A stretch of DNA of 64,000 nt from the NCBI RefSeq assembly GCF_056712565.1, contig NZ_CM160072.1; one strand, 5' to 3'. Made by a program: the position numbers and the translations under genes. This document shows, piece by piece, positions 19,955-34,239 of this stretch. The notes under the pieces were generated by a model, which was not told where the DNA came from, searched no databases, and saw only the letters and a list, made by a program, of their open reading frames with translations. Every line of letters starts with the position of its first letter. The stretch's first letter is position 1.

Positions 19955-20194
19955 ATTGGTGAGAATCGAAGCAACTTGTCGTGCCAATCGAGCCATGTCG
20001 TCGTCGACAACACCCCATTCAAGAACAGCAAGCAGCATTGAGAACTTTGGAATCCAGTCCCTCTTCCACCTGCTGATCTGCGACTTATCAACGCCCACAG
20101 CTTCCGCTGTCTTCTCAGTTCCAAGCATTGCGATTTTGTTAAGCAACGCACTCTCGATTCTTAGAGCCTCGTTGCGTTTGTTTGCACGAACCAT
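19901..20194 (-). CDS. cII: Lysogeny-establishment activator CII, near-identical to lambda CII (97 aa)
   Basis: MVRANKRNEALRIESALLNKIAMLGTEKTAEAVGVDKSQISRWKRDWIPKFSMLLAVLEWGVVDDDMARLARQVA.ILTNKKRPAATERS.QIQMEF is recognised. Internal start of the 126-aa track ORF. Confidence 0.95.
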   Translation of the reverse strand: MVRANKRNEALRIESALLNKIAMLGTEKTAEAVGVDKSQISRWKRDWIPKFSMLLAVLEWGVVDDDMARLARQVASILTNKKRPAATERSDQIQMEF

Positions 20195-20204
20195 ATGTAA
20201 GTAT
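20172..20204 (+). promoter_or_regulatory. PRE (CII-activated promoter for repressor establishment)
   Basis: TTGCGTTTGTTTGCACGAACCATATGTAAGTAT is identical to lambda PRE from memory (TTGC-N6-TTGC, N13, AAGTAT). It points toward c2. Confidence 0.85.
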
Positions 20205-20252
20205 TTCCTTAACAAATAAGAAGTTATGCGCATCAACTTATGCGCGTTGTAT

Positions 20253-20296
20253 TCCCGCATTTCGGCGGGAATGAGGACCATGACTGTTAAAGAGCA
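20253..20296 (-). promoter_or_regulatory. nutR (boxA TGCTCTTTAACA plus boxB hairpin TCCCGC-CGAAAT-GCGGGA)
   Basis: Lies between cro and cII. The same boxA core and an identical 18-nt boxB recur on the + strand in the PL leader (21387-21427). Confidence 0.8.
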
Positions 20297-20302
20297 ATTT
20301 GC

Positions 20303-20488
20303 TTATGCCGCTTTGCGGTAAGCGCTTTCTTGATACTTCAGGGCGCCAGCTGTAACGACTTCCAGTCGATAGGCGTCTTTCTCTGGGATGACTTCCTTCC
20401 ACTGAGAGACTGCTGCGTCGCTAATGCCTAACGCTTTAGCTACAGCACGCTGGGTTCCGAAGTGGTCGATAACATCTTTCTTGTACAT
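20303..20488 (-). CDS. cro: Cro repressor, P22-type (61 aa)
   Basis: MYKKDVIDHFGTQRAVAKALGISDAAVSQWKEVIPEKDAYRLE.VTAGALKYQE.AYR.AA is recognised as P22 Cro. Confidence 0.9.
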   Translation of the reverse strand: MYKKDVIDHFGTQRAVAKALGISDAAVSQWKEVIPEKDAYRLEVVTAGALKYQESAYRKAA

Positions 20489-20502
20489 AGACTCGCTCCG
20501 AA

Positions 20503-20568
20503 ATTAAAGAACACTTAAATTATCCACTAAAGGAATCTTAAGTCAAGTTTATTTAAGATGTCTTAACT
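20503..20568. promoter_or_regulatory. Right operator OR1-OR3 with divergent PR / PRM
   Basis: Three 18-bp P22-type operators (ANTNAAG-N4-CTTNANT) at 20503-20520, 20526-20543 and 20551-20568. PR on the minus strand is TTGACT(20546..20541)-N16-GATAAT(20524..20519). The c2 ATG abuts OR3. Confidence 0.8.
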
Positions 20569-21219
20569 ATGAAAACTCAATTGATGGGAGAGCGCATTCG
20601 CGCTCGGAGAAAAGAACTCAAGATCAGGCAGGCCGCACTTGGAAAGATGGTCGGCGTGTCTAATGTTGCCATATCTCAGTGGGAACGCTCTGAGACAGAG
20701 CCAAATGGAGAGAATCTTCTCGCCCTGGCTAATGCGTTGAAGTGTTCCCCTGACTATCTGATGAAAGGAGAGGAAAGTCTTTCAAACATTGCCTATCACA
20801 GTAGGCATGATCCAAGAGGGTCATACCCTCTGATTAGCTGGGTGAGCGCAGGATGCTGGATGGAAGCTGTAGAACCATATCATAAGCGTGCAATAGATAA
20901 CTGGTACGATACAACCGTAGACTGTTCAGAAGATTCGTTTTGGTTGGACGTGAAGGGAGACTCAATGACGGCTCCGGCCGGTCTCAGTATCCCTGAAGGA
21001 ATGATAATACTCGTCGATCCTGAAGTAGAGCCGCGTAACGGGAAACTGGTAGTTGCAAAGCTCGAAGGAGAAAACGAGGCAACTTTCAAGAAGTTAGTTA
21101 TTGATGCAGGCAGGAAGTTTCTAAAACCACTTAACCCACAATATCCGATGATCGAGATCAACGGAAACTGCAAAATCATCGGCGTAGTTGTCGATGCAAA
21201 ACTAGCAAACCTTCCATAA
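20569..21219 (+). CDS. c2: Prophage repressor C2, P22-type (216 aa; HTH plus S24 autopeptidase domain)
   Basis: Same length as P22 C2 and near-identical from memory (..QLMGERIRARRK.LKIRQAALGKMVGVSNVAISQWERSETEPNGENLLAL...VVDAKLANLP). Confidence 0.95.
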   Translation: MKTQLMGERIRARRKELKIRQAALGKMVGVSNVAISQWERSETEPNGENLLALANALKCSPDYLMKGEESLSNIAYHSRHDPRGSYPLISWVSAGCWMEAVEPYHKRAIDNWYDTTVDCSEDSFWLDVKGDSMTAPAGLSIPEGMIILVDPEVEPRNGKLVVAKLEGENEATFKKLVIDAGRKFLKPLNPQYPMIEINGNCKIIGVVVDAKLANLP

Positions 21220-21220
21220 G

Positions 21221-21243
21221 GGGGCATTCGCCCCTTTTTTTTT
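21221..21243 (+). terminator. Intrinsic terminator after c2
   Basis: GGGGC-ATTC-GCCCC followed by T9. Confidence 0.85.
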
Positions 21244-21286
21244 ATTTCCTTTAAAAATCAAAGCCAAACTTAAGTTACGAAAGAAA

Positions 21287-21340
21287 ATTTAAGTTTTCTT
21301 CAAAAATGCTCTTGACCATTAATTAAAGAGATCTTAAATT
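21287..21340 (+). promoter_or_regulatory. Left operators and PL promoter
   Basis: P22-type operators at 21322-21339 (ATTAAAGAGATCTTAAAT) and 21287-21304. PL is TTGACC(21312-21317)-N17-TAAATT(21335-21340). Confidence 0.7.
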
Positions 21341-21386
21341 TAAGCCATCAGCAGGACGCTGGAAGCCAAACGGAACAGATTGGCAG

Positions 21387-21427
21387 GCTCTTTAACATTG
21401 ATGGGATTGTCCCGCCGAAATGCGGGA
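21387..21427 (+). promoter_or_regulatory. nutL (boxA GCTCTTTAACA plus boxB TCCCGCCGAAATGCGGGA)
   Basis: Lies about 40 nt downstream of the predicted PL start. BoxB is identical to the nutR boxB. Confidence 0.8.
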
Positions 21428-21740
21428 ACCAAAGAGTAGTTGGCTTTGGGGTGACGTGAAGTGCAGCTGCACGACGGCAACCGGAAGATAAGCACCCGGC
21501 GCGTCACCGCCAAAGTCAATTCCATAGGCGTTATGCAGCCGCCACCATATTCAAGAAAGCTGCACAAGAGGTAGGAGGATTTATGTGAATGCATAACTTC
21601 AAAACCGAGGTTAATTAAATCTCTCGATCCGAGCATCGACCTATTAGGTGGCGAGATGCTCTTTCTGCCCCTCAGTTCGAGGGGCCAGAAACCACTTTGC
21701 AATCACTATCAATTCCAAAGTTGTTTCATCGGAGGTCAAC

Positions 21741-22040
21741 ATGACAGTAGTCATTACATATCTGGCTGACGATAACGCCAGAAATCGCCGCAGAGCACGC
21801 AGACAGGCTCAACGTGAACAGGCGATGCAAGAACAGCGACTGGCGCGAAAAATTGCGCTAAAGCTCTCTGGTTGCGTCAGAGCGGATAAAGCAGCATCAC
21901 TCGGAATCCTTCGCTGCAAGAAGGCAGATGAAGTCGAGAGTAAACAGAATCGTATTTACTACCGCAAGCCACGCAGTGAAATGGGTGTGACTTGTGTTGG
22001 TCGCCAGAAAATGAAATTAGGCAGCAAACCACTTATTTGA
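21741..22040 (+). CDS. N-like transcription antiterminator (gp24 analogue, 99 aa) with an arginine-rich motif
   Basis: ATG 21741 is preceded by GGAGG. N-terminal ARM DDNARNRRRARRQAQREQ. First gene of the PL operon downstream of nutL. An upstream in-frame GTG start (21648) is less likely. Confidence 0.75.
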   Translation: MTVVITYLADDNARNRRRARRQAQREQAMQEQRLARKIALKLSGCVRADKAASLGILRCKKADEVESKQNRIYYRKPRSEMGVTCVGRQKMKLGSKPLI

Positions 22041-22048
22041 GGTGATAT

Positions 22049-22519
22049 ATGACAAAATCATGGAGCGTACCTTTTCCTGAATCAGAAACTGAACATGATG
22101 GAATGCCTGTTTTCTGGAGATTCCAAGCGACAGTTGAAGAAGATGGAATCAAAATATTCGCACTTCAATATATAGCTTTTCATCAGACAGAGCATTATGC
22201 ATGGTTGGTTCCTGCGCATTGGATTGTTAATTTTAAACCAGCACCAAATCAGTGGTTACAGGAATGGAAACAAAGGAGAAATAGATATGCAATTAAGAAA
22301 GTAGCAAAAAATGCAGAAAGATCTTTTGCATTCCCGACGAAGAAACTTGCCATTGAAAGTTTATTGCGCCGGAAGAAATACCATTTGATGAGAATCAAAC
22401 AAGATTTGGCTGTTGTATCAACTCTTGTTGATGGGATGAAGAATATTGATACATCAACACCAGGTATTGAATATAACTTTGGACACAACCAAGAAACAGA
22501 AAACTGGGTGTTTTATTAG
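22049..22519 (+). CDS. Orphan protein (156 aa), low GC, unknown function
   Basis: ORF track. GAGGTGA SD. No TM segment. Trp-rich N-terminal half and a strongly basic helical centre. I do not recognise the family. Confidence 0.7.
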   Translation: MTKSWSVPFPESETEHDGMPVFWRFQATVEEDGIKIFALQYIAFHQTEHYAWLVPAHWIVNFKPAPNQWLQEWKQRRNRYAIKKVAKNAERSFAFPTKKLAIESLLRRKKYHLMRIKQDLAVVSTLVDGMKNIDTSTPGIEYNFGHNQETENWVFY

Positions 22520-22623
22520 TACGAATAAGCACTGTGTATTCATTCCAACGAGTGAATACACGGAGCAATGTCGCTCGTAACTAAACAGGAGCCGACTTGT
22601 TCTGATTATTGGAAATCTTCTTT

Positions 22624-22647
22624 GCCCTCCAGTGTGAGGGCTTTTTT
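22624..22647 (+). terminator. tL1-like intrinsic terminator
   Basis: GCCCTC-CAGTGT-GAGGGC followed by T6. Confidence 0.75.
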
Positions 22648-22713
22648 ATATGCATACCAATAACGCTTCACTCGAGGCGTTTTCGTTATGCAATCAAACA
22701 GAAGGAGCATCCT

Positions 22714-22884
22714 ATGCAACAGTTCGCTATTGCAGGGGCGGCATCGGTTCGCCCTTTCAACCCGATTTTATCGGTACAGCATTCACGAAAAAACATTTTA
22801 ACCGGAGCAGACTTTAAACAACCAAGAATGAAAAGCTTGCTCGAAAAGCTTTGGGATATTTTGAAACAACAAGGCCGTCCATGA
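22714..22884 (+). CDS. cIII: CIII-like FtsH inhibitor (56 aa)
   Basis: Own translation from ATG 22714 (GAAGGAG SD): MQQFAIAGAASVRPFNPILSVQHSRKNILTGADFKQPRMKSLLEKLWDILKQQGRP. The MQ.AIAG start and amphipathic SLLE.L...L.Q.G core resemble lambda/HK022 CIII. Confidence 0.6.
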   Translation: MQQFAIAGAASVRPFNPILSVQHSRKNILTGADFKQPRMKSLLEKLWDILKQQGRP

Positions 22885-23039
22885 GTTTTACGGATAACTG
22901 GTCAGACGAAGAATTCATTCGTCAGATAAAAGAATTAATCGGTAACGAAGGAGATATTCATGTCACTTGCAACCACAGTGAAGGAGAGCAAGTTACAGAG
23001 ACGCATGTACACGCAGAAAGCTCTCTGGTATCGCCATAA
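22881..23039 (+). CDS. Candidate small acidic protein (52 aa)
   Basis: The ATG overlaps the cIII stop (ATGA). Overlaps the next candidate ORF by 80 nt, so at most moderately supported. Confidence 0.35.
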   Translation: MSFTDNWSDEEFIRQIKELIGNEGDIHVTCNHSEGEQVTETHVHAESSLVSP

Positions 23040-23130
23040 TGGTGACCGCGAAGGAATGCGGGTATGCCTTAATTTGTCCCGAGTCGAAGTATTAAATCAG
23101 CGTTATTTCCTTGGGCCGTGTCCATTCTGA
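22960..23130 (+). CDS. Candidate small basic protein (56 aa), kil/arf slot upstream of erf
   Basis: Own translation: MSLATTVKESKLQRRMYTQKALWYRHNGDREGMRVCLNLSRVEVLNQRYFLGPCPF. Strong GAAGGAG SD 7 nt upstream. Below the ORF-track cut-off. Confidence 0.5.
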   Translation: MSLATTVKESKLQRRMYTQKALWYRHNGDREGMRVCLNLSRVEVLNQRYFLGPCPF

Positions 23131-23140
23131 GAGCAATCAT

Positions 23141-23746
23141 ATGAGCAAAGAATTTTACGCAAGACTGGCAGCTATTCAGGAGAATCTGAACGCGCCAAAG
23201 AATCAGTACAACTCATTCGGCAAATATAAATACAGAAGCTGCGAAGATATTCTTGAAGGCGTTAAGCCGTTACTGAACGGTCTGTTTTTATCAATCAGCG
23301 ATGAAGTTGTGTTGATTGGTGATCGGTATTACGTGAAAGCCACGGCAACTATTACCGATGGCGAAAACAGTCATACGGCAACCGCTCTTGCACGAGAGGA
23401 AGAAAGCAAGAAAGGAATGGATTCTGCACAAGTTACGGGAGCTACAAGCTCTTATGCACGCAAGTATTGCCTCAATGGTTTGTTCGGCATTGATGATGCG
23501 AAAGATGCAGATACAGACGAGCATAAACATCAGCAGAACGCAGCAGCAAAGCAATCAAAACCATCACTTACACCTGAACAGGTTCTAAAAGCATTCACTG
23601 ACGCAGCAATGCAGAAAAACACCGTAGAAGAGCTTAAACAGGCGTTCGCCAAAGCGTGGAAGATGCTCGAAGGGACGCCGGAGCAGCACAAAGCGCAGGA
23701 CGTTTACAACATCAGACGAGACGAATTAGAAGGGGCAACTGCTTAA
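23141..23746 (+). CDS. erf: Erf single-strand annealing recombinase, P22 Erf-like (201 aa)
   Basis: The N-terminal ~130 aa, MSKEFYARLA.IQE.LNAPKNQYNSFGKYKYRSCEDILEGVKPLL.GLFLSISDE.VLIGDRYYVKATATITDGENSH, are recognised as P22 Erf. The C-terminal domain diverges. Confidence 0.9.
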   Translation: MSKEFYARLAAIQENLNAPKNQYNSFGKYKYRSCEDILEGVKPLLNGLFLSISDEVVLIGDRYYVKATATITDGENSHTATALAREEESKKGMDSAQVTGATSSYARKYCLNGLFGIDDAKDADTDEHKHQQNAAAKQSKPSLTPEQVLKAFTDAAMQKNTVEELKQAFAKAWKMLEGTPEQHKAQDVYNIRRDELEGATA

Positions 23747-24129
23747 TGGCACATTCGATTACAGTAAGACTAAACAAACCCGCAAGAGAGTTTCAGGGCG
23801 GGGAAAATATCGGATTCAACATCCGTGCTGGCGTTCAGTATTACGATCGCCAGACAAAAAAGAAAGAATGGACAAACTACAGCGCCGTTGTATTTGCCAA
23901 GCCGGGAGCGCAAGCGGATTACTATCGTAGCGTTCTGGTTGAAGGAGGCATTGTAGAAATTACCGGAGAAAACATCAGGGTTGATGTTTATCAGGGGCAA
24001 AATGGTCAATCAATCACTCTTGAATTACTGAATGCAAAGATTGGATTTGCAACTTCAGGAAACAGCCAACAGCAGCAAAGTAGCAATCATCAAAATAATC
24101 CTGAATACGACGATTCCATCCCATTCTGA
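23746..24129 (+). CDS. ssb: Short phage SSB-like OB-fold protein (127 aa) with a host-SSB-type acidic tip ...EYDDSIPF
   Basis: Internal ATG overlaps the erf stop (TAATG). Gln-rich linker plus a DDSIPF tail (compare E. coli SSB DDDIPF). Confidence 0.7.
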   Translation: MAHSITVRLNKPAREFQGGENIGFNIRAGVQYYDRQTKKKEWTNYSAVVFAKPGAQADYYRSVLVEGGIVEITGENIRVDVYQGQNGQSITLELLNAKIGFATSGNSQQQQSSNHQNNPEYDDSIPF

Positions 24130-24152
24130 TTTAGAAAAATAAGGATTTAATT

Positions 24153-24449
24153 ATGCCAGCGCCTTTGTATGGTGCGGATGACCCGCGCCGCTGTTCCGGC
24201 AATTCCGTATCGGAGGTGCTGGATAAATTCAGAAAAAACTACGATCGAATAATGTCTCTACCGCAGGAAACGAAAGAGGAAAAGGAATTTCGCCACTGTA
24301 TATGGCTTGCAGAGAAAGAAGAACGCGAGCGAATTTACCAGACATCAATCCGACCATTCCGCAAAGCCACATATACCCACTTCCCTGAATATATCGACCC
24401 GCGCCTGCGTAATTACCGCTCACGCTATGGCGCTATCAGTAATGACTGA
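24153..24449 (+). CDS. Hypothetical protein (98 aa)
   Basis: ORF track; AAGGA SD; ea-region location. Confidence 0.55.
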   Translation: MPAPLYGADDPRRCSGNSVSEVLDKFRKNYDRIMSLPQETKEEKEFRHCIWLAEKEERERIYQTSIRPFRKATYTHFPEYIDPRLRNYRSRYGAISND

Positions 24450-24525
24450 GGAATTTACCATGAGAGGACTTGCTTAAGAGAAAGAGTTTCGGTTCTGTTA
24501 ATGACAACAAATATCTGAATGCGAT

Positions 24526-33825: not shown

Positions 33826-33997
33826 TATTATCTCTCATTTCGCATAGATGAAATTTATGAATTGAATGAAAAGAGTATTCATTCTTCATATCAAACACAG
33901 TGCATGTTTTGCACATTATCCCAGGAACGTTGGAGGGCTAATTTAAATGAGGTGCAAAAAAACAACAGAGGACTAAACCGCGGCTTTTGCAATACAA

Positions 33998-34015
33998 TTC
34001 TTACGCCTGTAGGAT
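33998..34015. promoter_or_regulatory. EvgA-box-like inverted repeat in the emrK-evgA divergent promoter region
   Basis: TTCTTACGCCTGTAGGAT fits the EvgA consensus TTCYTACA-N2-TGTARGAA as I recall it. Confidence 0.55.
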
Positions 34016-34239
34016 TAGTGAGAAAACTTATAGTGCTCATTTGAAACTATAAATCATCGGTATCATCCCTGATTTTATTGTTGACATTTTATTTATGCCG
34101 ACTATTTATATGGTATACTTGTCGAATTATCTTAAAGGAAGCTCAAATTTTCTTATTTTTATTGAGAAAATGAGATGATACCTTATGTCTGTATTACTAC
34201 AAGGAGAAGGGAAATGCTTCATTGCAAAGGGAATAATCT

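Follow-up and report, generated by a model that had tools for sequence, protein, structure and literature searches.

An HK97 gp45-like gene between N and the PreS/tL2a module of a lambdoid prophage: identity, distribution and possible roles

We describe an open reading frame (ORF) in the early-left region of a lambdoid prophage, contained in a 64,000-nucleotide (nt) stretch of contig NZ_CM160072.1 (RefSeq assembly GCF_056712565.1), which we call the window. The ORF occupies positions 22049-22519 of the plus strand directly behind an antiterminator N-like gene, begins with ATG and encodes a protein of 156 amino acids (aa) and 18.6 kDa. An earlier note on this DNA had singled it out as an orphan. 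The protein is a homologue of gp45 of phage HK97 (NP_037731.1), to which it is 98.7% identical, and it matches the PHROG 1636 profile from end to end (residues 1-156 against profile positions 1-156, E 1.1e-111). Together with L0079 of phage 933W (AAD25424.1) and orf57 of the Stx2 phage 86, HK97 gp45 spans an identity range of 98.7-99.4%. The same gene is present in H-19B, BP-4795, Min27, PA28 and many other Stx1 and Stx2 phages. All close homologues are annotated as ‘hypothetical’, and our literature search found no paper on the HK97 gp45 / 933W L0079 / PHROG 1636 gene. The sequence itself has long been catalogued with the HK97 and 933W genomes, and an accessory cassette of the lambdoid early-left operon is a feature of a known kind.

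The gene is widespread. In a collection of 15 billion proteins, at least 999 contigs encode a protein of exactly this sequence, and the gene was found in 562 of 5426 complete Escherichia coli genomes (~10%). A prophage of the E. coli type strain ATCC 11775 (WP_000167596.1) is identical to this part of the window where checked. Full-length homologues with 55-99% identity are distributed over Escherichia, Rosenbergiella, Pectobacterium, Brenneria, Cronobacter and Symbiopectobacterium; in the prophages of the last five genera, the identity is 55-84%. The ratio of nonsynonymous to synonymous substitution rates (dN/dS) is 0.05 between the window and HK97 and 0.03 between the window and 933W. When the comparison is made with a homologue of 83% identity, the proportion of nonsynonymous differences is 0.10 and that of synonymous differences 0.83, the latter being saturated. 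The ORF is thus a real gene under strongly purifying selection.

Beyond these close homologues, an exhaustive search with a hidden Markov model (HMM) through 1.84 billion cluster representatives matched 87 representatives. The remote ones are mostly 130-155 aa long, share 19-29% identity and belong to PHROGs 13631 and 25384, both annotated as of unknown function. Relatives occur in phage records of Pantoea, Pseudomonas and Vibrio, and fold matches in BFVD come from phages of Erwinia, Achromobacter, Rhizobium, Delftia, Cellulophaga and Tenacibaculum. With its many remote relatives and its presence in a tenth of the complete E. coli genomes, the gene can no longer be called an orphan. The distribution of the family is restricted to phages, which agrees better with a function during infection than with defence of the lysogen. 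Two large matches of the exhaustive search, P0056 and P0080, were discarded as repeat or low-complexity artefacts. Pantoea phage LIET2 gp064, considered as a second paralogue, proved unrelated on comparison.

The gene stands out from its surroundings by its base composition. As the earlier note had estimated by eye, its GC content (36.7%) is well below that of N (48.7%), and it is also lower than that of cI (0.470) and of the downstream early genes (0.458). Among all segments of 471 nt in the prophage part of the window (1-27000) it ranks in the lowest 0.4%, and the GC content at third codon positions is 0.29. The left edge of the low-GC segment abuts the stop codon of N. The right edge lies ~10 nt past the stop codon of the ORF, where identity to lambda starts. 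The gp45 homologue is a discrete single-gene low-GC cassette in a variable slot after N. Translation signals agree with the first description: the good Shine-Dalgarno sequence GAGGTGA overlaps the N stop codon (TGA, 22038-22040), and 8 nt separate this stop codon from the ATG.

The slot in question extends from N to the terminator tL2a, and its content varies between phages. In some annotated comparators it harbors known conflict genes, which bears out the proposal that the gene lies in a conflict-gene slot. Lambda and CFT073 carry sieB (antisense) and ral, HK620 carries hkaQ and the sieB-like hkaP, and an EP91A prophage carries ral together with a hypothetical gene of 108 aa. In phi367 the interval contains ral and a gp45 homologue. 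PA28 and 933W have the gp45 homologue in the interval, and another gene after the PreS block and before cIII, namely a gp17-like gene in PA28 and ea10 in 933W. HK97 and the window have gp45 alone. Since ral (phi367), a gp17-like gene (PA28) and ea10 (933W) each co-occur with it, the gp45 homologue is not a simple substitute for ral.

Two RNA structures follow the ORF, and they had been taken as the 3′ end of the gene itself. The upstream hairpin is real, but its stem comprises 12 base pairs (bp), including one G-U pair, and not 9; the loop consists of the four nucleotides CAAC. The clean intrinsic terminator behind it was correctly recognised, with a 6-bp stem (22624-22641, five G-C pairs) followed by T6 (22642-22647). 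Neither structure is specific to the gene. Positions 22529-22641 of the window are identical at 113 of 113 positions to lambda 33933-34045, which is the spacer between ral and ea10. The block 22529-22660 is present in 2237 of 5426 complete E. coli genomes (~41%), of which 562 have the ORF; in the ~1700 further genomes the block is found without the ORF, and usually no feature is annotated there. An alignment of the window with HK97, 933W, CFT073, HK620 and lambda revealed ~120 nt which are invariant except for two loop positions. The hairpin at 22534-22561 is conserved together with PreS in these five comparators, with one loop substitution in HK620. In CFT073 the block lies 3′ of ral and 5′ of ea10, while the two terminators of HK620 are annotated as tL2A and tL2B. 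The gene ea10 is inserted between tL2a and the tL2B-like element in lambda, 933W and CFT073. Folding of the 146-nt region gave a z-score of -4.3 relative to shuffled sequences.

In lambda, this spacer is the site of a small RNA (sRNA). A preprint describes LPR1, renamed PreS, as an Hfq-dependent sRNA mapped between ral and ea10 (bioRxiv 10.1101/2024.10.31.621285). According to this preprint, PreS is ~88 nt long and is processed to ~68 nt, its 3′ end is tL2a, and its synthesis is confined to the lytic cycle, from 10 min after induction; activation of dnaN, repression of alaS and an enhanced replication of phage DNA are described as its effects (bioRxiv 10.1101/2024.10.31.621285). By sequence identity, the hairpin and terminator behind the ORF belong to the PreS/tL2a module, a unit separate from the gp45 gene. 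The hairpin lies just 5′ of the putative PreS start, so it may possibly serve as a precursor or processing element or as a stabiliser. The PreS block does not accompany the more distant homologues of the ORF, from which it follows that PreS and the ORF are not functionally tied. Annotators should record the structured RNA behind the gene as the PreS sRNA and not as a gene-specific terminator. A scan of 20000-24000 against Rfam 15 gave no match, PreS being evidently absent from this release or below threshold. The anti-sRNAs AgvB and AsxR, considered for the downstream element, were rejected, as they likewise had no Rfam match. The same holds for the Pas sRNAs, whose loci are located elsewhere in prophages.

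Table 1. Positions of the features surrounding the gp45 homologue, numbered within the window
Feature	Positions	Strand	Remarks
Strong cI terminator	21218-21237, then T-run		
PL-like sigma-70 promoter, TTGACC / 17-nt spacer / TAAATT	21312-21340	+	Consensus scan 9/12; 3′ of cI and the cI terminator
nutL-like site: boxA-like TGCTCTTTC, then boxB-like GCCCCTC-AGTTC-GAGGGGC	21657-21685	+	Read from sequence
Antiterminator N-like gene, 99 aa	21741-22040	+	phrog_271, E 2.9e-36; weak Pfam N_peptide match
Shine-Dalgarno GAGGTGA	22039-22045	+	Overlaps the N stop codon; read from sequence
156-aa early gene, homologue of HK97 gp45 / 933W L0079 / H-19B gene (PHROG 1636)	22049-22519	+	phrog_1636, E 1e-111
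12-bp hairpin at the 5′ edge of the PreS module	22534-22561	+	Inside the 113-nt block identical to lambda
Putative PreS (LPR1) sRNA	22560-22647	+	5′ end approximate, counted 88 nt back from the end of the T-run
Intrinsic terminator, homologous to lambda/HK620 tL2a; also PreS terminator	22624-22647	+	
Second terminator-like hairpin AACGCTTCACTCGAGGCGTT with T-rich tail, homologous to HK620 tL2B	22662-22691	+	Between PreS and cIII
cIII gene, 56 aa	22714-22884	+	phrog_550, E 1e-22

The promoter-like site upstream of N (Table 1) is probably PL, given its location between cI and N. The nutL-like element, which we take to be nutL from what is known of lambdoid nut sites, is unique in the window; it has a 7-bp stem and a 5-nt loop and lies 56 nt 5′ of the N start codon. 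On the plus strand between 21340 and 22049, no sigma-70-like site was detected in a simple consensus scan. From the PL-like promoter to 22624, this strand has no further predicted intrinsic terminator, in line with the earlier description of a PL-strand gene before any terminator. The promoter scan was a crude consensus search, and the terminator prediction covers intrinsic terminators, Rho-dependent termination being beyond its scope.

More generally, the region 20300-24450 is a mosaic of HK97/P22 type with the gene order cro (minus strand), a cI-like repressor gene of the LexA family, N, gp45, PreS, cIII, the gene of an Arf-like small recombination protein, Erf, SSB-like and the anti-RecBCD gene Abc2. 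A further low-GC trough (0.38-0.40) is located at 21000-21400 and covers the end of cI, the cI terminator and the PL-like promoter. On the minus strand, an ORF of 120 aa with a TTG start (21340-21702) runs antisense to the PL leader and nutL. Its match to phrog_6589 (E 7e-8) is limited to the last 20 residues, and the ORF is probably spurious. Apart from this partial match, the antisense ORFs of the region have no PHROG match.

The product of the gp45 homologue is predicted to be a soluble α/β protein with a phage-restricted fold. As the first reading of the translation had stated, it has no transmembrane segment (the maximal Kyte-Doolittle mean over 19 residues is 0.56) and a basic centre. 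The isoelectric point is 9.3, and there are seven tryptophans in total. Charge is unevenly distributed, with net values of -5 over residues 1-60, +13 over residues 74-120 and -4 over residues 121-156. Among relatives of ~20% identity, the best conserved part is a basic strand-loop-long-helix unit (residues ~74-120) with the consensus K[KR][VI]xK...RxFAFxTKxxAxxSLxxRKxxxLxxLKxDL. Its conserved basic residues include K84, K87, R91, K109 and K117.

The final AlphaFold model was computed with an alignment of 40 sequences which includes remote relatives. It reached a predicted local distance difference test score (pLDDT) of 92.6 and a predicted template modelling score of 0.79; with close homologues only, the pLDDT was 70. 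In this model a long β-hairpin (19-46) and a third strand (50-55) are followed by short helices (56-61 and 66-74), a short strand (83-86), a helix of 33 residues (98-130) and an ordered C-terminal tail. The layout would thus comprise an acidic three-stranded N-terminal sheet, a basic conserved centre and an acidic aromatic C-terminal tail. The predicted fold has no match to any solved structure, and a sequence search of the PDB with two profiles returned nothing.

Profile searches agree with the earlier failure to place the protein in a known family, as no match to Ral, SieB, gp17, Ea10, Pfam, NCBIfam or PADLOC was obtained. In Pfam, NCBIfam and PADLOC this holds for the protein as well as for its 40 remote relatives; the sole match in PADLOC-DB was a chance one to Cas1_II (E 0.018, 12 bits). 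Direct hhalign comparisons gave probabilities of 0.1% against lambda Ral, 0.7% against the gp17-like protein of PA28 (P22 gp17 type), 0.15% against lambda Ea10 (DUF2528) and 1.6% against SieB. For SieB, the protein moreover lacks a hydrophobic segment, and its gene is on the PL strand and not antisense. The FAFxTKxxA motif suggested an AP2 or lambda Int arm-type DNA-binding domain, which was rejected at an hhalign probability below 2%.

The genomic contexts of the homologues are early operons, often in a promoter-proximal position or adjoining recombination genes. The early-left position behind N is shared by the window, HK97, 933W, PA28, 611R6 and two further loci (L024 and L025). Two further lambdoid lineages, with 83% and 71% identity, have the start of the gene 2-7 nt behind unrelated N alleles, and its neighbours include RecT/Gp157. 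Homologues of 62-63% identity in Brenneria alni (L019, 4001-6011) and Pectobacterium betavasculorum (L020, 4001-5922) are the last gene before xis-int at the prophage end. In one case the homologue opens an operon and a ParB-like gene follows it, while others lie within early or recombination blocks with an exonuclease and AAA_24, with RecT-YqaJ-RdgC or with RecE. In one metagenomic phage, the homologue is a lone gene between oppositely oriented genes.

Starting from what is directly observed (the reality of the gene, its identity, selection, cassette boundaries, novelty of fold and distribution), we tentatively favour an early lytic accessory protein with a conserved basic, probably nucleic-acid-binding face, which would act in host takeover or counter-defence and not in exclusion by a prophage-expressed product. 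In such a scheme, an immediate-early message from PL would comprise N, gp45 and PreS as soon as lytic growth begins, and gp45 would be silent in the lysogen. Early in the lytic cycle, its basic face might bind nucleic acid or some other polyanionic partner, a step which we propose with low confidence, and the protein would thereby serve as an accessory host-takeover or counter-defence factor. Promoter-like sites between PL and the ATG were not found, nor were terminators before 22624, and the gene follows different N alleles in three lineages at a distance of 2-8 nt, which argues for co-transcription with N. PreS, just downstream on the same strand, is lytic-only in lambda according to the preprint, and by analogy this timing may extend to gp45. 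The -5/+13/-4 charge pattern and the conservation of the basic segment above all others are consistent with a functional basic face.

Some observations weigh against this interpretation. The basic surface could bind an acidic protein instead of nucleic acid. The proposed expression timing depends on a crude promoter consensus scan, and Rho-dependent termination falls outside the terminator prediction. The position of the gene is not constant, as illustrated by the xis-int location in Brenneria and Pectobacterium and by the lone gene of the metagenomic phage; because of this variation, some members could be expressed in the lysogen. Furthermore, no conserved partner gene points to a pathway in the contexts examined.

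Several other explanations have to be considered. For a non-functional chance ORF or a decaying remnant, nothing speaks beyond the absence of annotation. This explanation is refuted by conservation, the fold model and dN/dS: purifying selection is strong, the full length is conserved across genera, the fold is predicted with confidence and the HMM search matched 87 cluster representatives, so that practically no probability remains for it. Much more weight is due to a dedicated counter-defence protein which inhibits a specific host immune protein by protein-protein contact, the main idea of the earlier note, even if we regard it as unlikely on balance. The slot after N holds ral (restriction alleviation) and gp17-like genes in relatives, gp45 is an early gene, and the cassette is single-gene, horizontally exchanged and low in GC. 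Among phages and prophages with the flanking PreS module, it is present in 87 of 368 phage records and in 562 of 2237 genomes (about one quarter), and such patchiness is typical of accessory conflict genes. However, there is no similarity to Ral, to gp17-like proteins or to any family in the searched libraries, and the remote family extends over phages of Proteobacteria and Bacteroidota, which is broader than expected for a lineage-specific inhibitor. Acidic DNA mimics such as Ocr and ArdA represent a known type of inhibitor; the most conserved feature of gp45, in contrast, is polybasic.

The recurrent vicinity of recombination modules (Erf/SSB/Abc2 in the window, elsewhere RecT/Gp157, exonuclease with AAA_24, RecT-YqaJ-RdgC or RecE) and the member preceding a ParB-like gene suggest an accessory role in DNA metabolism or gene regulation of the phage itself, such as that of a recombination or replication helper or of a small transcription regulator, and not a conflict function. 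The modelled basic helix would be compatible with DNA binding. Yet the linkage is weak, as recombination genes are to be expected in the early operons of temperate phages in any case. Lambda-type phages can do without the gene, given that gp45 is missing from lambda, HK620 and CFT073-type prophages, and no known DNA-binding or recombination family is matched; we consider such a role quite unlikely. A role in the lysogen, as a prophage-expressed moron which protects its host by superinfection exclusion or abortive infection, appears very improbable. The low GC content, which had led the earlier note to regard the gene as a moron, the occupation of the place of sieB in lambda-type phages, and the occurrence as a stand-alone unit in some distant phages or beside int at a prophage end are in its favour. 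But the simple consensus scan revealed no promoter-like site upstream, the gene sits tightly behind N on the repressed PL strand, and the downstream terminator belongs to PreS and not to gp45, so the unit would not be a classical moron. In addition, there is no transmembrane segment, unlike in SieB, and no PADLOC match. Relatives in large Pantoea and Pseudomonas phage genomes, with no integrase in the stretches examined, count mildly against it as well, as do those in Vibrio phage records and the fold matches in other diverse phages. These relatives and the lack of an upstream promoter-like site are the chief objections to the exclusion reading, and both are soft.

The early lytic accessory role that we favour may be extended to a bolder proposal: gp45 would be the E. 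coli representative of small basic proteins which form a structurally new family across phages, and lambdoid phages would use it as an immediate-early effector with a new mechanism, for instance by attaching to a host nucleic acid or nucleoprotein complex and thereby disabling a defence or diverting host machinery. We regard this as possible but doubtful. If it held, a phenotype could be tested directly in classic genetic systems, since HK97, 933W and H-19B carry the gene, and would be relevant to the biology of Shiga-toxin phages. Nothing found here demonstrates an unusual mechanism; the gene is a reasonable and tractable experimental target. It is carried by about one tenth of the complete E. 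coli genomes and by phages of model and medical importance (HK97, 933W, H-19B and many Stx1 and Stx2 phages), in the most promoter-proximal part of the early-left operon. If its target were identified, a gap in the otherwise well-mapped early programme of lambdoid phages would be closed, and a new mechanism of host takeover or counter-defence might come to light.

The known systems considered closest include small β-barrel or sheet domains which bind nucleic acids or RNA polymerase, namely PWWP, the Tudor-like PipX, CarD, the UvrD C-terminal domain, KOW and AP2, the last of which was rejected as stated above. Lambda Ral, SieB, P22-type gp17 and lambda Ea10 resemble gp45 as accessory, cassette-exchanged genes of the same slot between N and cIII, but sequence or profile similarity is lacking (hhalign probability below 2%). 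SieB, a membrane protein, has its gene on the opposite strand, and Ral has 66 aa, whereas the gp45 homologue has 156 aa, no transmembrane segment and a gene on the PL strand. The lambda PreS/tL2a element and its counterpart in the window have the same GC-rich stem followed by a U-tract; the context of the T-tract differs slightly (CTTTTTTAT in the window, CGATTTTTTAT in lambda), and the gene 5′ of PreS is gp45 in the window and ral in lambda. The proteins of PHROGs 13631 and 25384 and the BFVD phage proteins share the predicted fold and the conserved basic strand-helix motif with the window protein. They differ in identity (19-29%), length (130-150 aa), hosts and genomic positions, and they are uncharacterised as well. 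Finally, HK97 gp45, 933W L0079, phage 86 orf57 and the H-19B gene encode the same protein at the same place, after N and directly 5′ of PreS/tL2a, with cIII or ea10 following, and show no material difference from the gene of the window.
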